From a virus (Duplodnaviria > Heunggongvirae > Uroviricota > Caudoviricetes): a DNA stretch of 44,824 nucleotides. Of the stretch, positions 5,168 through 43,600 are shown in pieces. The stretch is taken from IMG/VR virus record IMGVR_UViG_647533158_000002. The stretch is one strand, 5' to 3'. Numbering within the stretch: position 1 is the first letter of the stretch; each line of letters begins with the position of its first letter. The position numbers and the translations under genes were made by a program. Under the pieces are notes generated by a model that did no database searches, was not told the origin of the DNA, and saw nothing but the letters and a program-made list of their open reading frames with translations.

Positions 5168-5911
5168 TTACAAATACTTTACATTTACCGCTATAAGAGA
5201 ATAATCGTCAGTCGGGCCTTTTGTCTCTATTCTTCGCATTAGGCTGGAGGCAAACCTTGATGCGGTTGACAATGTACGGTAAGAAAATCGTGGGCGTTGC
5301 TCCCAAAAGGTATGCGCGCCATCAGACATGATGAATAGAGATAGAACACCATCGTCAAGAGGAAGTTCATCTTTATCAATATTTATGACTTGATGTTGAA
5401 GGGGGATCTTGGCAGCAAGTGCAGTTGTAATAATATTTTTACCTTTTGCATTTTTGAGCTGTCGAGCTGTATAAATACCGCTATCTATCAACATTTGATG
5501 TTGAGTATGATCTGTTGTTAATTGGATTAGCTTATTTCCATTTTTTAAATAAACACGACAGTCACCTACATGTATAATTGTTAGACCTTGATTGTGAAGT
5601 AGGCACATTGTTAAAGTTGTAGCAGCAGATGCTAATTCTTTATCAACTGACGAAAGAGATGCCACCTTTTCTTGTAGGGTCTTAAGTAAGGATAAGACAT
5701 TGTCTTCATGAGTGAAGCTGTCTTTAATACTATACAAATGATTTATTACTGCTGCAGATGCTTCTTTTCCTCCTTTATAACCACCAACCCCATCAGCTAT
5801 AGCCATAAGATAACCATTTGGTGTTTGAAGTGGATAAAGCACGCTATCTTGATTTTCCCTGCCATTATGTTTTGGTACAGAAAATATGGATGATGAGAGT
5901 ATGCTAATCAT
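5168..5911 (-). CDS. PP2C-family (PPM) Ser/Thr protein phosphatase
   Basis: 247 aa; PP2C motifs visible: AIADGVGG, HVGDCRVY, LIDSG, MSDGAH; ATG overlaps the kinase TGA stop (ATGA) indicating translational coupling; AT-rich codon usage. Confidence 0.8.
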   Translation of the reverse strand: MISILSSSIFSVPKHNGRENQDSVLYPLQTPNGYLMAIADGVGGYKGGKEASAAVINHLYSIKDSFTHEDNVLSLLKTLQEKVASLSSVDKELASAATTLTMCLLHNQGLTIIHVGDCRVYLKNGNKLIQLTTDHTQHQMLIDSGIYTARQLKNAKGKNIITTALAAKIPLQHQVINIDKDELPLDDGVLSLFIMSDGAHTFWEQRPRFSYRTLSTASRFASSLMRRIETKGPTDDYSLIAVNVKYL

Positions 5912-6633
5912 AAGCGTTTCAACTCCAATTCCTCAAAGATCTGCTCTACGGTCAGGAATCTTTTGTTAAGTTGTCTATGCGTACATTTGTTTATTATATC
6001 ATCAAAACCATCAATATTTAATTCTTCAATTAAAATACCAATTGAATATATATCTGATTGTTTTGAATATCCGTTGAGGAAAACGTTGTAATCAAAGTAT
6101 TTAGGAGTAGCGGGGTATTGGCCAATTTGTGTTAATAGCTGTGTATTGGCATCTGGTGACACATTTTTTGCAAGGCCGAAGTCAGATAACTTATAAATTC
6201 CATCTTTAAATTTTAGTACATTTAGTGGTTTTATATCCCGATGAAGATATCCTTTCTTATGAATCCATCCGACGGCATTTAGTACCATTTTTACAATAGA
6301 GATTTTTTCAGCCTTTGTAAGAGTTCCACTTTTTATTTCTTCTTCAAGATTTGTTTCTGCTAGTTCCATTACGAACCAAGGCTGAGCATTCTGTAAGTGG
6401 CATATGAATATTTGGACAATATTAGTATGCAGGCATTCAGTTTGATATCTTACTTCTCGTTCAAATCTGGTAAAGAGTTCAGGATCTGTTGCATCAGGTC
6501 GTAAAATTTTTCTGGCATATAGACCACAAATTTTTCTTTGTGAGTTATATAACCTTATTTTTTCTACAAGGCCAAAACCGCCAGAACCAATTACTTCTAG
6601 GGGTTCTATTAGGTAATTCCCACGTTCTTCCAT
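5908..6633 (-). CDS. Hanks-type (eukaryotic-like) Ser/Thr protein kinase
   Basis: 241 aa; Gly-rich loop IGSGGFGLV, catalytic loop HRDIKPLN, DFG motif (LSDFGLAK); AAGGA RBS 7 nt upstream of ATG at 6633; AT-rich relative to flanks. Confidence 0.85.
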   Translation of the reverse strand: MEERGNYLIEPLEVIGSGGFGLVEKIRLYNSQRKICGLYARKILRPDATDPELFTRFEREVRYQTECLHTNIVQIFICHLQNAQPWFVMELAETNLEEEIKSGTLTKAEKISIVKMVLNAVGWIHKKGYLHRDIKPLNVLKFKDGIYKLSDFGLAKNVSPDANTQLLTQIGQYPATPKYFDYNVFLNGYSKQSDIYSIGILIEELNIDGFDDIINKCTHRQLNKRFLTVEQIFEELELKRL

Positions 6634-6728: not shown

Positions 6729-7418
6729 TTATCCATGCTTCCTATACGTCTGCGGCATGCTCCCGATGACTTTCCCGAAGATGAATACCCGGTTCATCTC
6801 GTCTTTCTCGATTGGGTCCCACGGTGAGTAGCTCTTGTTATCAGAGATAACCAGCAGTTTATCCTTCATCATTTGCAGGCGCTTTACATGGGCTGTGTCG
6901 TCGTACAGAAACGCATAGATACCATCACCGTCGAAAGATTTAACCGTGATATCAACGAACAGCAGATCACCTGGTTCGATCGTTCCTGACATGCTGTCAC
7001 CGCGTACGTTAATGATACGGATATTTTCCGCCTTCCTGCCATCGAACATGTGACGAGCATCGTCAAACGAATACTCAACCGAACGTAGAACTTCTACAAA
7101 CTCACGGTTGATGACTCCCGGCCCGGCACTCACTTCGATATCAAGAACGTCAATCTTAAAGTATTTGGAATGGCTGACAGTTGTTTGTATTGGTTGCACT
7201 GTACTGTCTGACATATTTCCAACGCCAGAAGATAACCATTCTGCGCGCACACCCAAAGCGTTCGCGATCTCCACGATTTTAGTTGTTTGGTTAGCTTTCC
7301 CTGTTTCGATTTTCTGAATAGCTGCTTGGCTAACCCCGACCAAATCCCCAAGCGCCTTTTGTGTAAGGCCTCGCGCTAATCTGGCTTCTTTAAGTCTTTC
7401 TGAGAGTGTTGTTTTCAT
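6729..7418 (-). CDS. cI: CI-type prophage repressor (HTH_XRE N-domain + S24 LexA-like peptidase C-domain)
   Basis: HTH LTQKALGDLVGVSQAAIQKIE; Ala-Gly cleavage site (SAGPG); catalytic GDSM and VKRL motifs; start placed at ATG 7418 (MKTTLSE...) rather than upstream alternative start so that an operator region remains. Confidence 0.85.
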   Translation of the reverse strand: MKTTLSERLKEARLARGLTQKALGDLVGVSQAAIQKIETGKANQTTKIVEIANALGVRAEWLSSGVGNMSDSTVQPIQTTVSHSKYFKIDVLDIEVSAGPGVINREFVEVLRSVEYSFDDARHMFDGRKAENIRIINVRGDSMSGTIEPGDLLFVDITVKSFDGDGIYAFLYDDTAHVKRLQMMKDKLLVISDNKSYSPWDPIEKDEMNRVFIFGKVIGSMPQTYRKHG

Positions 7419-7522
7419 AGTCCAAATGTACAACCAAGGTTTTATTTCATCAAACGAAAATGGTTGTTGACTAAAAACAACCATGGTTTTAATCTTGATT
7501 CAAATTAACCACGGAGGTTGTT
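7419..7522. promoter_or_regulatory. OR-like operator/promoter region (divergent pRM / pR)
   Basis: Between divergent cI and cro; inverted repeats AACC-aa-GGTT (7432-7441), TGGTTGTT-n7-AACAACCA (7461-7484), CAACCATGGTT (7479-7489); plus-strand -35 TTGACT at 7467-7472 with candidate -10 TAATCT 17 nt downstream; cro RBS GGAGG. Confidence 0.5.
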
Positions 7523-10375: not shown

Positions 10376-10442
10376 TGAAACAGGTGAGTTGAGTTCAAAC
10401 TGTAGTACAATTCTCTCCAGTTTGAACAGGAAAGAATATGCT

Positions 10443-10775
10443 ATGAACCCTTATATTTATCTTGGTGGTGCAATACTTGCAGAGGTCATTGGTACAACCT
10501 TAATGAAGTTTTCAGAAGGTTTTACACGGTTATGGCCATCTGTTGGTACAATTATTTGTTATTGTGCATCATTCTGGTTATTAGCTCAGACGCTGGCTTA
10601 TATTCCTACAGGGATTGCTTATGCTATCTGGTCAGGAGTCGGTATTGTCCTGATTAGCTTACTGTCATGGGGATTTTTCGGCCAACGGCTGGACCTGCCA
10701 GCCATTATAGGCATGATGTTGATTTGTGCCGGTGTGTTGGTTATTAATTTATTGTCACGAAGCACACCACATTAA
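10443..10775 (+). CDS. emrE: small multidrug resistance efflux transporter EmrE
   Basis: 110 aa from ATG 10443; MNPYIYLGGAILAEVIGTTLMKFSEGFTRLWPSVGTIICYCASFWLLAQ... recognised as EmrE; four hydrophobic helices. Confidence 0.9.
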   Translation: MNPYIYLGGAILAEVIGTTLMKFSEGFTRLWPSVGTIICYCASFWLLAQTLAYIPTGIAYAIWSGVGIVLISLLSWGFFGQRLDLPAIIGMMLICAGVLVINLLSRSTPH

Positions 10776-13020: not shown

Positions 13021-13572
13021 ATGAAAACACTTATCGTTTCAACTGTATTGGCATTCATAACATTTTCTGCGCAGGCTGCAGCATTTCAGGTCACTAGTAA
13101 TGAAATAAAAACAGGAGAGCAACTTACAACGTCTCATGTCTTTTCTGGATTTGGGTGTGAAGGTGGTAATACATCGCCCTCATTAACCTGGTCTGGTGTT
13201 CCTGAAGGTACCAAAAGCTTTGCCGTAACTGTATATGATCCAGATGCACCTACAGGCAGTGGTTGGTGGCATTGGACTGTTGTTAATATTCCAGCAACAG
13301 TAACATATTTGCCCGTTGATGCAGGGAGACGTGATGGAACAAAACTGCCGACTGGTGCTGTTCAAGGCCGAAATGATTTTGGCTATGCTGGGTTTGGTGG
13401 CGCATGTCCTCCTAAAGGAGATAAACCACATCATTACCAGTTTAAAGTATGGGCTCTAAAAACTGAAAAGATTCCTGTAGATTCTAACTCCAGCGGAGCG
13501 TTAGTTGGTTATATGCTTAATGCTAATAAAATCGCAACCGCTGAGATAACACCAGTTTATGAGATAAAGTAG
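13021..13572 (+). CDS. ybcL: PEBP/YbhB-family periplasmic protein (YbcL-like)
   Basis: 183 aa with signal peptide (MKTLIVSTVLAFITFSAQAAAF); PEBP-like motifs DPDAP and HHY. Confidence 0.85.
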   Translation: MKTLIVSTVLAFITFSAQAAAFQVTSNEIKTGEQLTTSHVFSGFGCEGGNTSPSLTWSGVPEGTKSFAVTVYDPDAPTGSGWWHWTVVNIPATVTYLPVDAGRRDGTKLPTGAVQGRNDFGYAGFGGACPPKGDKPHHYQFKVWALKTEKIPVDSNSSGALVGYMLNANKIATAEITPVYEIK

Positions 13573-13581
13573 GGTGAGAGT

Positions 13582-14379
13582 ATGCTGGCAAGAGGTAAGA
13601 CTAACTTAAAGATCGAAGAAATACGGATGCATAAACATCATGAGATTCATAGGGTTAAGCCTCTTATGCCAGCTTTGTGTCGTATCCGTCAGGGAAAGAA
13701 AGTTATCAATTGGGAGACGCATACTTTAACTGTTGATAATAATCAAATAATATTATTTCCTTGTGGTTATGAATTTTATATTGAGAATTATCCTGAAGCA
13801 GGGCTTTATCTTGCAGAAATGCTTTACTTACCCATTGATTTAATTGAGAGTTTCCAAAAACTTTATACGGTAACTGATCAAATACGTAACAAAACAAGTT
13901 TATTTTTACCTCAGAATCCTGAGTTAATATATTGTTGGGAGCAACTAAAAACATCTGTTTCCCGAGGCTTCTCAACTAAAATTCAGGAGCACTTAGCAAT
14001 GGGCGTTCTACTTTCGTTAGGAGTGAATCATGTTAATCATTTACTTTTATCATATAGTAAACAATCATTGATAAGTCGTTGTTATAACCTGCTGCTATCC
14101 GAACCCGGCACAAAATGGACAGCAAACAAGGTTGCTCGATATCTCTACATTTCTGTTTCTACATTACATCGCCGTCTAGCAAGCGAGGGGGTAAGTTTCC
14201 AAAGTATACTGGACGATGTGAGGTTAAATAATGCGTTGTCTGCTATACAAACGACGGTAAAACCTATAAGCGAGATTGCCAGAGAAAATGGTTATAAGTG
14301 TCCTTCTCGTTTTACTGAAAGATTTCATAATCGTTTTAATATAACACCAAGAGAGATAAGAAAAGCTTCCAGAGAGTAA
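13582..14379 (+). CDS. ybcM: AraC-family transcriptional regulator (YbcM-like)
   Basis: 265 aa; C-terminal AraC-type HTH region; start codon choice (13582 vs 13627) uncertain. Confidence 0.75.
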
Positions 14380-15998: not shown

Positions 15999-16083
15999 AG
16001 TCAGAGATAACAATCAACTAATACTGTTTTGTTGATTTTTGCTTGTAATTGGCGTTCTGGTCTGATTTTTGTGGAGTAAGTTG

Positions 16084-16467
16084 ATGCGTGATATTCAGAT
16101 GGTTCTTGAGCGTTGGGGAGCGTGGGCGGCTAATAATCATGAAGATGTGACCTGGTCGTCCATTGCCGCCGGTTTTAAGGGATTAATTACTTCAAAAGTA
16201 AAATCTCGCCCGCAATGTTGTGACGATGACGCGATGATTATTTGCGGGTGCATGGCCCGTCTGAAAAAGAACAACAGCGATTTGCACGATTTATTAGTAG
16301 ATTATTATGTAGTCGGTATGACATTCATGTCACTAGCAGGTAAGCATTGCTGCTCTGATGGTTATATCGGGAAAAGGTTACAGAAGGCTGAGGGCATAAT
16401 TGAAGGGATGTTAATGGCATTAGATATCCGGTTAGAGATGGATATCGTTGTTAATAACTCTAATTAA
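16084..16467 (+). CDS. quuD: late-gene antiterminator Q (QuuD / phage 82-21-type)
   Basis: ATG 16084 ([17 protein letters not shown]...) preceded by GGAGTAAG; Cys-rich region; position upstream of lysis cassette. Confidence 0.85.
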
Positions 16468-16477
16468 TATGCCAATT

Positions 16478-16518
16478 GTTTACTAAAAATTATTAAAAAT
16501 GGGGCGTTGCAACGCCCC
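16478..16518 (-). terminator. terminator hairpin downstream of nmpC (palindromic, possibly bidirectional)
   Basis: Perfect palindrome GGGGCGTTGCAACGCCCC at 16501-16518; T-run follows on the minus strand. Confidence 0.5.
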
Positions 16519-16655
16519 CAAAAATAAAGGGTAATATATAACAGAAGGTTTATATAGTTAGAAGCAAGGTTGTGCTCCTAAAGGAAGTGGCTTGAGGGAG
16601 CCACTTATATGTTGGGGAGGCAAAGCCTCCCGCAACATATCTTTTAGTAATCAAA

Positions 16656-17738
16656 TTAGAACTGGTAAACCATACCTACAGCAACGATATCATCGGTAGC
16701 AACGCCAGATGCTTTCGTGAAATCGCTCTTATCAATCAGGTTGATTTTGTAATCAACAAAAGTGGACATATTTTTGTTGAAGTAATAGGTTGCACCTACA
16801 TCAATATATTCAACCAGGTCCTGATCACCCCACGCACCCAAGTCTTTTCCTTTAGATTGCAGGTAAGCAACGGACGGACGCAGACCGAAGTCGAACTGAT
16901 ATTGTGCAACTACTTCGAAGTTTTGTGCTTTGTTGGCAATATGGTTATTACCAAAAACAGTCATGTTCTGGGTTTCAGAATAGGTGGTAGCCAGATAGAT
17001 GTTGTTCGCATCATATTTCAGACCAGCTGCCCATACTTCAGCATTTTGACCAGATGCATTCAGGCTGTTGTTACCGTAGATAACCTGATTATTAGTGCGG
17101 TCAGATTTAGCATAGGTTGCACCTACACCGAATCCTTCATACTCATAAGTAGTGGAGAAACCGAAACCATCACCATTAGCTTCAGTTACGTCAGTGCGGT
17201 CATTTTTACCCTGATACTGAGCAGCAAAGTTCAGACCATCAACCAGACCAAAGAAGTCGTTGTTACGATAAGTTGCAACACCAGTGGTGCGACCAGTCAT
17301 GAACACATCTGTTTGGGTCCAGGTATCGCCACCGAATTCTGGCAGAACGTCAGTCCACGCACCGATGTCATATGCTACACCGTAGTTACGGCCGTAATCG
17401 ATTGAGCCGTAGTCCCCGAATTTCAGGCCTGCAAATGCAAGACGGGTTTTGTCTTTGGAGGAGCCTTGAGATTCAGCGCGGTTGCCTTTGAATTCATATT
17501 CCCACTGACCGAAACCAGTCAGTTGATCGTTGATTTGGGTTTCACCTTTGAAGCCAAGACGGGCATAAGTAGTATCACCATCATCTGCATCATTAGAGGA
17601 GAAGTAGTGCTTGGCATTAACTTTCCCATATAGATCCAGCTTGTTACTGTCTTTATTATAAATTTCAGCTGCCTGAGCAGACATCGCCATCAGTACTGAT
17701 GCAGCTACAGCAGAAATTGCCACTGTTAATTTTTTCAT
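16656..17738 (-). CDS. nmpC: outer-membrane general porin NmpC (OmpC/OmpF family)
   Basis: Signal peptide [23 protein letters not shown], beta-barrel porin sequence ending in YQF; start set at ATG 17738 rather than upstream alternative start. Confidence 0.9.
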
Positions 17739-18326
17739 CGTGAGCCCTTTTTTTGAACTATTATTAAAAAATGATGTCACTGCGCGATAAATATTCATCT
17801 AATCAATGTGATTATTTCAAGATGTAAGTTTTGGTTTCTCGTTTGATTTGTGAAGTAGATCTCTATTTTTATCTGAACTTTTTTCTATCGAATCCTATTC
17901 ATGGATCTTGGCTGAATAAAAATAAATCTATTAGCCAATTTATATTAACGGCTGTTATTTATAAGTGCTCTGTAATTTGAAGGTTCAATTTAAATCGGCT
18001 AAAAATAACACTGGAAATTATTTGTTGGTTATTTGTTGAGATTTGCTTATGTATTTGTAGTGGTGTTTTCAATACTCGGTAGCATTCTCGCAAATATCAT
18101 TTTGTGGTTTACGTACGTAAAAAATTGGTTATGCTGTTAAGAGTGGTTACTTCGTCACACAGCTTAAACCCGCCGTCGAGCGGGTTTTTCCATTTTTTGA
18201 GTCTCGATATTAGCTGATAACCCAATACCTGAGTTATTCACTGACTCCGAGTCTGTTACGTTTCTGCTTTTTTGCGATACGTTGTATTCCCTCAATTTAC
18301 ACCCGCTTTGTCTGCGAGGTGGGGTT

Positions 18327-18542
18327 ATGAAATCCATGGATAAGTTAACAACGGGTGTCGCCTATGGCACCTCAGCAGGTAGTGCCGGTTACTGGTTTTT
18401 ACAGCTGCTCGATAAAGTCACGCCCTCACAGTGGGCAGCAATAGGTGTGCTGGGTAGCCTGGTATTTGGCCTGCTGACGTACCTGACAAACCTTTATTTC
18501 AAGATTAAAGAAGATAAGCGCAAGGCTGCGAGAGGTGAATAA
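18327..18542 (+). CDS. essD: class II holin (phage 21 S21-type pinholin), dual-start MKSM
   Basis: 71 aa [29 protein letters not shown]...; two TM segments; GAGGTGGGG RBS; stop overlaps endolysin start (TAATG). Confidence 0.85.
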
Positions 18543-19528: not shown

Positions 19529-19822
19529 TTATTGTGAGCAATACACACGCGCTTCCAGCGGAGTATAAATGCCTAAAGTAATAAAACCGAGAAATCCATT
19601 TACGAATGTTTGCTGGGTTTCTGTTTTAACAACATTTTCTGCGCCGCCACAAATTTTGGCTGCATCAACAGTTTTCTCCTGTCCAATTCCCGAAACGAAG
19701 AAATGATGGGTGATGGTTTCCTTTGGTGTTACTGCTGTCGGTTTGTTTCCAACAGTAAACGTCTGTTGAGCACATCCTGTAATAAGCATTGCCAGAGCGG
19801 CAGAAAACAACATTTTTTTCAT
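19529..19822 (-). CDS. borD: Bor lipoprotein (serum-resistance-associated)
   Basis: MKKMLFSAALAMLITGCAQQTFTV... lipobox ITGC; recognised as lambda Bor-like; start at internal ATG 19822. Confidence 0.9.
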   Translation of the reverse strand: MKKMLFSAALAMLITGCAQQTFTVGNKPTAVTPKETITHHFFVSGIGQEKTVDAAKICGGAENVVKTETQQTFVNGFLGFITLGIYTPLEARVYCSQ

Positions 19823-20182
19823 CTTATTATCCTGCATTGTTAAAAACGGCAGAATCCTATGTGACAACAATTAAACGATAGTTAAATGGATTGATGAAAA
19901 TTAAAACTATATAGGTGGATGCTCAGCCTATTGGAGGAGGGGGGGCACTCAGAATCCTGTGGAATGAAATAAACCGCTCTATCTGTCCATTACCCTTTTA
20001 GCTGCGCTGTATCGTCGCCGTATTCCCGCATTAACCATGACCGTAGCCCGACGGGGAATTCCTTCTGCGTGAGTGTGCGGGAATAATCAAAAACGATGCA
20101 CACCGGGTTTTACTGTGCTGACAGACGCAGGGTTACCCTCATAGTCGCTTTTCCGGTGCGATGGTGGAAGAAACCGGGATGT

Positions 20183-35348: not shown

Positions 35349-35621
35349 NNNNNNNNNNNNNNNNNNNNNNNNNNNNNNNNNNNNNNNNNNNNNNNNNNNN
35401 NNNNNNNNNNNNNNNNNNNNNNNNNNNNNNNNNNNNNNNNNNNNNNNNNNNNNNNNNNNNNNNNNNNNNNNNNNNNNNNNNNNNNNNNNNNNNNNNNNNN
35501 NNNNNNNNNNNNNNNNNNNNNNNNNNNNNNNNNNNNNNNNNNNNNNNNNNNNNNNNNNNNNNNNNNNNNNNNNNNNNNNNNNNNNNNNNNNNNNNNNNNN
35601 NNNNNNNNNNNNNNNNNNNNN
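35349..35621. other. run of 273 N (unresolved or masked sequence) spanning the K/I junction
   Basis: Literal n characters in the sequence. Confidence 1.
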
Positions 35622-36273: not shown

Positions 36274-39898
<3,625 letters not shown>

Positions 39899-39964: not shown

Positions 39965-40564
39965 ATGCGTAAACTTTATGCCGCCATTTTGTCCGCAGCC
40001 ATTTGTCTGGCCGTATCCGGTGCGCCTGCATGGGCGTCTGAACATCAGTCCACGCTGAGCGCGGGGTATCTTCATGCCTCGACGAACGTTCCCGGCAGCG
40101 ATGATCTGAACGGGATTAACGTGAAATACCGTTATGAGTTTACGGACACACTGGGGATGGTGACGTCATTCAGCTATGCAGGAGACAAGAATCGCCAGCT
40201 GACCCATTACAGCGATACCCGCTGGCATGAAGATTCCGTGCGTAACCGCTGGTTCAGCGTGATGGCGGGGCCGTCTGTGCGCGTGAATGAATGGTTCAGC
40301 GCGTATGCGATGGCGGGTGTGGCTTACAGCCGTGTGTCGACTTTCTCCGGGGATTATCTTCGCGTAACTGACAACAAGGGGAAAACGCACGATGTGCTGA
40401 CCGGAAGTGATGACGGTCGCCACAGCAACACGTCTCTGGCGTGGGGAGCTGGCGTGCAGTTTAACCCGACCGAATCCGTGGCCATTGATATTGCTTATGA
40501 AGGTTCCGGCAGTGGCGACTGGCGCACTGACGGTTTCATCGTGGGTGTCGGTTATAAGTTCTGA
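39965..40564 (+). CDS. lom: Lom outer-membrane protein (Ail/Lom family)
   Basis: 199 aa with signal peptide, beta-barrel pattern ending in GYKF; GAGAGG RBS. Confidence 0.9.
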   Translation: MRKLYAAILSAAICLAVSGAPAWASEHQSTLSAGYLHASTNVPGSDDLNGINVKYRYEFTDTLGMVTSFSYAGDKNRQLTHYSDTRWHEDSVRNRWFSVMAGPSVRVNEWFSAYAMAGVAYSRVSTFSGDYLRVTDNKGKTHDVLTGSDDGRHSNTSLAWGAGVQFNPTESVAIDIAYEGSGSGDWRTDGFIVGVGYKF

Positions 40565-40628: not shown

Positions 40629-43600
40629 ATGGCAGTAAAGATTTCAGGTGTACTGAAAGACGGCACAGGAAAACCGGTACAGAACTGCACAATCCAGCTG
40701 AAAGCAAAACGTAACAGCACCACGGTGGTGGTGAACACGCTGGCCTCAGAAAATCCGGATGAAGCCGGGCGTTACAGCATGGACGTTGAGTACGGTCAGT
40801 ACAGCGTTATTCTGTTGGTGGAAGGATTCCCGCCGTCACATGCCGGGACCATCACCGTGTATGAAGATTCTCAACCCGGTACGCTGAATGATTTTCTCGG
40901 TGCCATGACGGAGGATGATGCCCGTCCGGAGGCACTGCGCCGTTTTGAACTGATGGTGGAAGAGGTGGCGCGTAACGCGTCCGCGGTGGCACAGAACACG
41001 GCAGCCGCGAAGAAGTCAGCCAGTGATGCCAGCACATCAGCCCGTGAGGCGGCAACCCATGCGGCTGATGCTGCGGACTCAGCACGCGCAGCCAGCACGT
41101 CAGCCGGACAGGCCGCGTCGTCGGCTCAGTCAGCGTCTTCCAGCGCAGGAACGGCATCAACAAAGGCCACTGAAGCATCAAAAAGTGCTGCCGCTGCAGA
41201 GTCCTCAAAAAGCGCGGCGGCCACCAGTGCCGGTGCGGCGAAAACGTCAGAAACGAATGCTTCAGCGTCACAACAATCAGCAGCCACATCTGCATCCACC
41301 GCGACCACGAAGGCATCAGAAGCTGCGACCTCGGCCCGGGATGCGGCGGCCTCAAAAGAGGCGGCAAAATCATCAGAAACGAGCGCAGCCTCGAGCGCCA
41401 GTAGTGCAGCTTCCTCGGCAACGGCGGCAGGAAATTCCGCGAAGGCGGCAAAAACGTCCGAGACGAACGCCAGGTCTTCTGAAACGGCAGCGGGACAGAG
41501 CGCCTCAGCTGCGGCAGGCTCAAAAACAGCGGCTGCGTCGTCTGCCAGTGCAGCGTCAACAAGTGCCGGGCAGGCCTCANNNNNNNNNNNNNNNNNNNNN
41601 NNNNNNNNNNNNNNNNNNNNNNNNNNNNNNNNNNNNNNNNNNNNNNNNNNNNNNNNNNNNNNNNNNNNNNNNNNNNNNNNNNNNNNNNNNNNNNNNNNNN
41701 NNNNNNNNNNNNNNNNNNNNNNNNNNNNNNNNNNNNNNNNNNNNNNNNNNNNNNNNNNNNNNNNNNNNNNNNNNNNNNNNNNNNNNNNNNNNNNNNNNNN
41801 NNNNNNNNNNNNNNNNNNNNAGGCCTCAGCCAGTGCCACCGCCGCCGGAAAATCGGCAGAAAGCGCTGCATTGTCCGCTTCAACAGCCACAACGAAGGCT
41901 GGCGAAGCCGCTGAACAGGCCAGCGCAGCAGCGAGGTCTGCATCCGCAGCGAAGACATCCGAAACGAACGCGAAAGCGTCGGAAACCAGCGCAGAATCCT
42001 CAAAAACGGCAGCGGCATCGTCTGCCAGTTCGGCGGCGTCATCGGCATCATCTGCGTCTGCTTCAAAAGATGAGGCGACCAGACAGGCGTCAGCAGCGAA
42101 GGGCAGCGCCACGACGGCATCCACGAAGGCGACAGAGGCTGCTGGCAGTGCGACAGCGGCAGCACAGAGCAAAAGTACGGCGGAATCCGCGGCAACGCGC
42201 GCCGAGACAGCAGCTAAACGGGCAGAGGATATTGCATCCGCCGTGGCGCTTGAGGATGCAAGTACGACGAAAAAGGGGATAGTACAGCTCAGCAGTGCGA
42301 CCAACAGTACGTCTGAAACGCTGGCGGCAACGCCAAAGTCAGTAAAATCAGCCTATGACAATGCAGAGAAACGTCTGCAGAAAGACCAGAACGGCGCTGA
42401 TATACCCGATAAGGGACGCTTCCTGAACAACATTAACGCGGTCAGTAAAACAGACTTTGCTGATAAGCGTGGTATGCGTTATGTGCGGGTTAACGCTCCT
42501 GCAGGTGCAACATCTGGAAAATATTACCCTGTTGTTGTTATGCGTTCTGCTGGCTCAGTAAGCGAACTGGCATCAAGGGTCATTATCACCACGGCAACGC
42601 GAACCGCAGGCGATCCGATGAATAACTGCGAGTTTAACGGATTTGTTATGCCTGGTGGCTGGACTGACAGGGGGCGTTATGCTTATGGAATGTTCTGGCA
42701 ATATCAAAACAATGAACGAGCCATCCACTCAATAATGATGAGTAATAAGGGCGATGATTTGCGCTCTGTGTTCTATGTTGATGGCGCTGCTTTCCCTGTT
42801 TTTGCGTTTATCGAAGATGGCCTGTCAATATCCGCACCTGGTGCTGATCTCGTTGTTAATGATACGACCTATAAGTTTGGGACAACAATTCCAGCGACTG
42901 AATGTATCGCGGCGGACGTTATCCTTGATTTTAAGAGTGGGCGTGGTTTTTATGAGTCCCATTCGTTAATCGTTAACGATAACTTGTCGTGCAAAAAACT
43001 TTTTGCCACAGACGAAATTGTAGCGCGTGGTGGTAATCAGATTCGAATGATAGGTGGGGAGTATGGGGCATTATGGCGTAATGATGGCGCTAAAACTTAC
43101 CTGCTGCTTACCAATCAAGGTGATGTTTATGGTGGCTGGAATACATTAAGACCGTTTGCTATTGATAACGCAACCGGCGAACTGGTTATTGGAACCAAAC
43201 TGTCTGCAAGTCTGAACGGTAACGCATTGACAGCAACAAAGCTGCAAACGCCAAGACTGGTTTCTGGGGTTGAGTTTGATGGTTCAAAAGATATTACTTT
43301 AACCGCCGCGCATGTGGCTGCTTTTGCCAGAAGGGCAACGGATACATATGCCGATGCGGATGGTGGCGTTCCCTGGAATGCCGAATCAGGCGCTTACAAT
43401 GTCACCCGCTCTGGCGACAGCTATATTCTGGTTAACTTCTATACCGGAGTCGGAAGTTGCCGGACCCTGCAGATGAAGGCGCATTACAGAAATGGAGGTC
43501 TGTTCTACCGTTCCTCAAGAGATGGCTATGGTTTTGAGGAAGGCTGGGCAGAAGTTTATACCTCGAAAAATCTTCCACCAGAAAGCTACCCAGTTGGCGC

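Follow-up and report, generated by a model that had tools for sequence, protein, structure and literature searches.

The Porin Locus and Its Prophage

The locus described here comprises the late antiterminator gene quuD, an oppositely oriented porin gene, nmpC, with its own promoter region and a structured 3' UTR, and essD, the first gene of the lysis cassette. It is embedded in a window (the complete stretch of 44,824 nucleotides that was analysed) that extends from the integrase stop codon to the tail-fibre assembly gene and is colinear with the 44.6-kb phage PhiR34_1. The early part of the window has the gene order int, exo-bet-gam, cI-cro-cII, O-P-ren, emrE, ybcK, ybcL, ybcM, ybcN, ninE, ybcO, rusA and ylcG, and the late part continues with Q, the porin gene, S-R-Rz, bor, the terminase genes, the head and tail genes, lom, stf and tfa. 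The window is best described as a complete lambda-like Escherichia coli prophage and a relative of the K-12 remnant DLP12.

Three runs of N at 35349-35621, 37431-37753 and 41580-41820 (273, 323 and 241 nt) are located in tail genes, among them J and the gene for the side tail fibre, and an apparent J frameshift in the list of open reading frames (ORFs) is due to such a run, i.e., to a masked or unsequenced stretch. The C-terminus of J is 82% identical to that of phage 21, 57% to that of 434 and 53% to that of lambda; as the receptor is not inferable from it, a superinfection-exclusion benefit is not arguable from the sequence.

Several accessory genes accompany the porin gene. A Ser/Thr protein kinase gene (5911-6633, minus strand) matches Pfam Pkinase with an E-value of 2.5e-32 and the PADLOC models PD-T4-6, mad6 and Stk2 with E-values down to 3e-39, and it lies beside a PP2C phosphatase gene (5171-5911, minus strand; E 5e-12). 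The pair (5171-6633) is found directly downstream of cI (6732-7484), in the slot that is taken by rexAB in lambda, and the near-identical phage PhiR34_1 lacks this 1.5-kb segment. It probably constitutes a kinase-type phage-exclusion module. Other accessory genes at 10389-10775, 13021-14379, 19529-19870 and 39965-40564 have as products the SMR efflux protein EmrE, the periplasmic protein YbcL and the AraC-type regulator YbcM, a Bor/Iss lipoprotein, and Lom.

The porin locus is common in E. coli. Among the 5426 complete E. coli genomes, 2465 (roughly 45%) contain at least 80% of it, and the allele of the window is found at 99% identity or more in 141 records. The prophage integrated at the argU/DLP12 site of E. 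coli FCI51 has the same 1.9-kb locus with 100% identity, and its porin gene carries an annotation as an intact CDS. Likewise, at least 80% of the locus is contained in 36 lambdoid phage records, including PhiR34_1, PhiR68_2, PA-2, 434B and Perceval, and the arrangement with the porin gene between Q and S-R-Rz on the opposite strand is the same in these 36 records. The plaque-forming phages PhiR34_1 and PhiR68_2, which were propagated on MG1655 and ECOR13, are 99.9% identical to the window at this locus.

The Porin Gene nmpC

The nmpC coding sequence occupies positions 16656..17738 on the minus strand. With an ATG at 17738 and the end of the ORF at 16656, it comprises 1083 nt, corresponding to 360 codons and a stop codon, and the coordinates of the complete porin gene that a preliminary description of this DNA had proposed match the ORF list exactly. 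The encoded protein is identical to RefSeq WP_000737275.1, which is labelled "porin OmpC" in E. coli FCI51, to the porins of the phages PhiR34_1 and PhiR68_2, and to the head (P0002) of a cluster with 2741 member sequences.

The preliminary description had also considered the gene intact and had suggested a comparison with reference NmpC. For this purpose, the K-12 protein was rebuilt by removing IS5 and was aligned together with PA-2 Lc and the gene of the window. Start and stop are the same and the alignment is colinear from Met1 to Phe360, Met1 and the C-terminal VYQF being common to all three proteins. The porin shares 328 of its 360 residues with PA-2 Lc and with K-12 NmpC, from which it is distinguished by 32 substitutions and two in-frame deletions of 3 and 2 aa. 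Neither a frameshift nor a truncation of the coding sequence was found in the alignment to these two references.

A longer ORF of 380 aa starting at 17798 was rejected as an artefact of frame coincidence, because it depends on a run of seven instead of eight adenines at 17747-17754, and both RefSeq and the PA-2 record begin the porin at MKKLTV. This homopolymer in the nmpC 5' UTR, 9 nt 5' of the ATG, is variable among otherwise identical records and is the sole difference from PhiR68_2 over 1.9 kb. The A7 run places an upstream ATG in frame and thereby creates the 380-aa ORF in the window; the A7/A8 variation also explains why several phage records divide the porin into two CDS or give it an N-terminal extension of 20 aa.

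The assignment of the protein to the OmpC family and to NmpC, as proposed earlier, is borne out by profile matches and by the alignment to Lc and NmpC. Pfam Porin_1 (PF00267) is matched over the profile positions 1-337 of 337 with an E-value of 3.1e-153, which is far above chance, and the NCBIfam OmpC subfamily model yields 518 bits at a cutoff of 484, while the PhoE and OmpF equivalog cutoffs of NCBIfam are not reached. The N-terminal 23 residues (17670..17738, minus strand; cleavage AQA|AE) are identical to the sig_peptide annotated for lc in the PA-2 record, and thus the signal peptide that had been attributed to the gene is recovered, as a Sec signal peptide. From residue 24 onwards, the protein aligns end to end with the solved chains of OmpK37, OmpC, PhoE and OmpF. 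An AlphaFold2 (AF2) model that was based on 31 homologues is of medium confidence (mean pLDDT 67), so that loop boundaries are approximate; DSSP assigns 16 long strands to it. The loop L3 motif PEFGGD is present at residues 133-138, and the C-terminus VYQF places Phe last. Taken together, the profile match, the signal peptide and the predicted 16-stranded barrel characterize the protein as a general diffusion porin of the Enterobacteria type.

Allelic Variation

The surroundings of the porin gene (quuD, essD and the two intergenic regions) share 97-100% identity with K-12, whereas the 3' two-thirds of nmpC show only 62-95% identity per 60 nt. The differences are not evenly distributed over the protein: the alignment with K-12 NmpC has 36 columns with a difference, and 28 of them are located in the external loops L4, L5, L6 and L8 as predicted from the AF2 model with its pLDDT of 67 (Fisher p = 8e-9). 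Three allele classes can be distinguished among lambdoid phages. The first is represented by K-12, PA-2 and PhiR29_1 (365 aa), the second by the window and ev243 (360 aa), and the third by ev207, PhiR63_2 and Perceval (360 aa), which have other versions of L5, L7 and L8. Variation that is restricted to loops, as placed by the model, is the usual pattern for a surface protein under phage, colicin or antibody targeting.

The Promoter Region

The region upstream of the nmpC start codon contains the candidate promoter PnmpC (17739..17937, minus strand). In K-12, the corresponding 199 bp 5' of the nmpC start codon were reported to carry an active sigma-70 promoter with a transcription start site (TSS) 'G' mapped by 5' RACE. 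Two Crp sites for activation and sites for repression by OmpR, IHF and MprA were described for K-12 PnmpC, which also drives the IS5 transposase. The whole 588-bp intergenic region upstream of the ATG is 98-100% identical to K-12 and PA-2, and both CRP sites that are annotated in PA-2 (J02580) are present without mismatches. One is located within PnmpC (17846-17866); the second (18142..18162, 21 nt) is listed without a strand and overlaps the start of the late transcript. At the sequence level, the region thus has the two PA-2 CRP sites and the 98-100% identity to K-12 that mark a CRP-dependent promoter. The -35 element may correspond to TTGAAA at 17820-17815, which would place the TSS near 17785. 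As a generic promoter scan returned nothing in either intergenic region, the promoters are assigned by homology and from the literature, and both promoter activity and CRP control would be expected here by analogy with the near-identical loci. The upstream intergenic region has a GC content of 34.7%, compared to a fraction of 0.44 for the nmpC coding sequence, 0.35-0.38 for the flanks and 50.5% for the window.

The minus-strand sequence CAGUGGC at 17719-17725, covering nmpC codons 5-7, can presumably pair with the seed at the 5' end of the sRNA RybB. The nmpC mRNA has been reported as a RybB target in E. coli.

The 3' UTR and the Terminator

The porin gene had been credited with its own terminator, and the terminator scan indeed detects an intrinsic terminator on the minus strand, with a stem at 16518..16501 of seven pairs, six of them G-C, followed by a T run. 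The terminator of the nmpC-ipeX transcript (16493..16518, minus strand) reads GGGGCGTTGCAACGCCCC and then continues into the T run. It can be specified further as the end of a 167-nt structured 3' UTR (16489..16655, minus strand) containing several stem-loops, which by its position and sequence is assigned to the RNA element IpeX; the exact 167-nt boundaries were set from the stop codon and the terminator end. Folding of 16480-16660 predicts a series of hairpins with -66.9 kcal/mol (z = -8.6 versus shuffled sequences). Eight phage and prophage copies of ipeX, including those of K-12 DLP12 and PA-2, have a mean identity of 97% and are too alike for testing the hairpins by covariation. The ipeX stretch is 96-100% identical in 36 of 36 lambdoid phage records. 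No Rfam family covers the nmpC 3' UTR; the only Rfam match, a sub-threshold hit of Trp_leader over the late terminator tR', was taken as chance.

According to the literature, IpeX is a 167-nt RNA of DLP12 and PA-2 that is transcribed from the porin promoter, on the same transcript as the porin, and lowers OmpC and OmpF. It does so without obvious base pairing, and none was found with ompC. The near-identity of the loci suggests that ipeX may affect OmpC and OmpF in the same way here.

A bidirectional function of the terminator at 16501-16518 was ruled out, because the T run is present on the minus strand only; for the same reason, there is no canonical terminator for plus-strand read-through from quuD. 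ORF1, which is annotated in PA-2 antisense to the 3' end of lc, is not conserved in the window, where a stop codon follows after 12 codons.

Position Relative to Q and the Late Promoter

The gene upstream of the cassette, quuD (16084..16467, plus strand), encodes a late antiterminator Q of the Q21/H-19B type (127 aa; Pfam PF06530 Phage_antitermQ, E 3.5e-53). RefSeq annotates the identical Q locus as quuD, and the protein is 78% identical to Q of the Stx1 phage VT1-Sakai. It is separated from nmpC by a spacer of 188 nt. On the other side of the cassette, essD (18327..18542, plus strand) encodes an S21-type pinholin with the dual start MKSM (Pfam PF04971, E 2e-35; essD in RefSeq).

The late promoter was located by homology. 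When the sequence preceding essD was used in a sensitive search, positions 18107-18189 proved to match the region at the end of Q in many Stx phages, and they are 78% identical, in the same order, to the late promoter, the Q-utilization site and the pR' terminator of VT1-Sakai (a putative annotation). The window is colinear with VT1-Sakai in that 16082-16416 corresponds to the Q gene and 18107-18189 to pR'-qut-tR'; the gap between Q and pR' amounts to 88 nt in VT1-Sakai versus 1690 nt in the window. The predicted pR' (18108..18135, plus strand) has a -35 element TTTACG at 18108-18113 and a -10 element TATGCT at 18130-18135. The predicted tR' (18166..18199, plus strand, with 18166-18187 as the part placed by homology), the intrinsic terminator on which Q antitermination would act, is recognized both by homology to VT1-Sakai and by the terminator scan, with eight pairs and a T run. 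The same functions would be expected for both elements here.

In phage 21, which has no porin gene, pR' begins 7 bp after Q. A corresponding position directly after Q was rejected for the window, because ipeX and its terminator take up the spacer, and 18107-18189 is the segment with homology to pR'-tR' of VT1-Sakai. On this mapping the cassette lies between Q and pR', and not 3' of pR' as the stx genes do. The earlier placement of the porin between Q and the holin in antisense orientation therefore stands, and its link to the region of pR' and cargo genes is refined, since the cassette is located upstream of pR' and outside the slot that stx genes use. Late transcripts would thus miss the porin cassette. 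From the layout, the only transcription to enter it would be read-through from pR past Q, which would run antisense, given that the T run of the cassette terminator is confined to the minus strand.

The cassette has the features of a moron, namely its own terminator, a K-12-like promoter region, a deviating GC content, and related phages that lack the insert (VT1-Sakai and phage 21). The Shigella phage SfII (L015, 421-1714) contains the same pR'-tR' segment upstream of the holin gene, but preceded by two minus-strand hypothetical genes and no porin, which suggests that the same slot takes different antisense cargo. A further detail concerns the lysis-cassette leader between tR' and the essD start, where the 16 nt at 18264-18279 (CTGCTTTTTTGCGATA) are missing from K-12 DLP12 but kept in the window and PA-2. 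This is possibly a K-12-specific lesion.

Possible Functions of the Cassette

Considering the nmpC/lc cassette as a transcription unit of its own, its function is very probably lysogenic conversion by porin replacement. Lysogenic conversion had already been suggested in the preliminary description, and the literature interprets NmpC and the 90%-identical Lc of PA-2 in this way. The cassette would form a self-contained unit opposite to the late genes, consisting of a CRP-activated sigma-70 promoter, the porin gene, IpeX and the terminator. As a unit that is inserted between Q and pR', it would be transcribed in the lysogen independently of prophage induction and of Q. NmpC would be exported and assembled as trimers in the outer membrane like a general porin, while IpeX as part of the same transcript would lower OmpC and OmpF. 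Such a porin swap would alter permeability and the surface receptors that are open to phages and colicins. PA-2 uses OmpC as its receptor, and Lc lysogens reportedly lose OmpC, according to work by Schnaitman and Misra.

Alternative explanations differ in whether the gene is functional, whether it is expressed, and who profits from it. A pseudogene or an assembly artefact, i.e., a frameshifted, truncated or chimeric ORF, has a negligible probability and is already refuted. Some phage records (PhiR68_2, ev243) do split the porin into two CDS and the window does contain three runs of N, but the split calls stem from the A7/A8 run in the 5' UTR, outside the coding region, and every run of N lies beyond position 35349. 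Aligned to Lc and NmpC, the coding sequence is colinear and has in-frame gaps only, and an identical RefSeq protein and 2741 cluster members exist. The main rival is that nmpC is intact but quiescent, being silenced by nucleoid proteins or by OmpR, IHF and MprA, and without a phenotype unless activated. The GC content of the upstream intergenic region, which is low relative to the window, is compatible with silencing; K-12 PnmpC is reportedly repressed by these three regulators; and the title of a 1998 paper calls nmpC of E. coli B 'quiescent', so that an intact copy can stay silent in laboratory culture. In CFT073, NmpC is thermoregulated and low at 23 °C, but it was detected at the RNA and protein level at 37 °C. 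Moreover, K-12 PnmpC, whose sequence is nearly the same, yields a 5' RACE product and drives a transposase, and the porin of the Perceval prophage of LF82 is expressed 10-fold above the local background in LB. By analogy with these near-identical loci, expression in lysogens would be expected, and permanent silence appears improbable.

Two further proposals concern the purpose of the cassette. It might mainly benefit the host rather than serve phage exclusion, as a porin that is induced at 37 °C and helps against heat, host-associated or antibiotic stress, with the receptor change as a side effect. In accordance with this, a uropathogen expresses its nmpC homologues preferentially at 37 °C, and a contribution of NmpC to heat resistance has been reported for strain AW1.7. 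In addition, many of the 2465 genomes with the locus carry it in degraded prophages (e.g., FCI51 and K-12), which suggests retention after phage decay. Yet the K-12 copy is inactivated by IS5 without a reported cost, and variable surface loops between near-identical flanks fit phage, colicin or antibody pressure better. A primary benefit for the host is rather unlikely, and it is compatible with porin replacement. A switch that is coupled to the phage life cycle is a more speculative idea and should be given little weight. During lytic growth, N-antiterminated read-through past Q would run antisense over ipeX and nmpC, because the cassette is upstream of pR', convergent to quuD and closed by a one-directional terminator. 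The phage porin and IpeX would be shut off and OmpC and OmpF restored, while the lysogen would show a loop-variant NmpC. The allele classes in L4, L5 and L8 would then be receptor-escape variants that are kept apart by recombination within near-identical prophages.

Porin replacement, as the preferred reading, has consequences for annotation and for phenotype prediction. Pipelines label an intact and probably expressible phage porin as "OmpC" or "OmpD", and its 3' UTR is an unannotated IpeX. Porin and IpeX can change porin-dependent antibiotic uptake and the sensitivity to phages and colicins, and this concerns every complete E. coli genome with the locus, i.e., roughly 45% of them. With pR' downstream of the cassette, the porin cargo would be uncoupled from prophage induction, unlike stx.

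Comparison with Known Systems

Since the 1980s, nmpC/lc has served as a textbook case of an outer-membrane porin gene carried by a prophage. PA-2 lc (J02580) lies at the same place and in the same direction with respect to the lysis genes, and it shares the signal peptide and both CRP sites with the window; the mature residues 1-157 differ at two positions only, and the ipeX region is 96% identical. In contrast to the 365 aa of Lc, the porin of the window has 360 aa, because it lacks 3 aa in the predicted L4 and 2 aa in L5, and its substitutions are clustered in L4, L5, L6 and L8. The K-12 gene (DLP12, b0553) is found in the same gene order, ybcL-ybcM-ybcN-ninE-ybcO-rusA-ylcG-quuD-nmpC-essD-rrrD-rzpD-borD, with flanks that are 97-100% identical. 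It is, however, disrupted by IS5 near its 3' end and resides in a prophage remnant, whereas the gene of the window is uninterrupted and the head and tail genes of its prophage form a complete set.

The 3' UTR resembles IpeX of DLP12 and PA-2 in following directly after the porin stop codon, in ending at the terminator, in its near-identical sequence and in its strong predicted structure. It differs by a few point changes in loops and by one mismatch position in the first hairpin. Each of the 36 lambdoid phage records has an IpeX UTR behind its porin gene; no such UTR was found with the porins of P7, JL22 or Salmonella phages.

OmpD of Salmonella and Citrobacter is likewise a Porin_1 protein, with approximately 80% identity across the full length, and E. 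coli nmpC has been regarded as the counterpart of ompD. Nonetheless, ompD is a chromosomal core gene, while the E. coli gene is prophage-borne and has an IpeX 3' UTR.

The Stx1 module of VT1-Sakai/H-19B is similar in that a conversion gene follows Q and precedes the lysis genes, and Q and pR'-qut-tR' are each 78% identical. In Stx phages, however, pR' overlaps the end of Q, and stx is located 3' of pR' on the same strand and is induced with the late genes. In the phage of the window, the cargo occupies the opposite strand between Q and pR' and would be independent of late transcription.

In every respect that can be checked on the sequence, the feature is thus a known one, the classical lambdoid-phage porin cassette nmpC/lc of the DLP12 lineage. 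The present analysis refines this known cassette by the identity of its terminator region as IpeX, by its position upstream of pR', and by allele differences that are restricted to loops.
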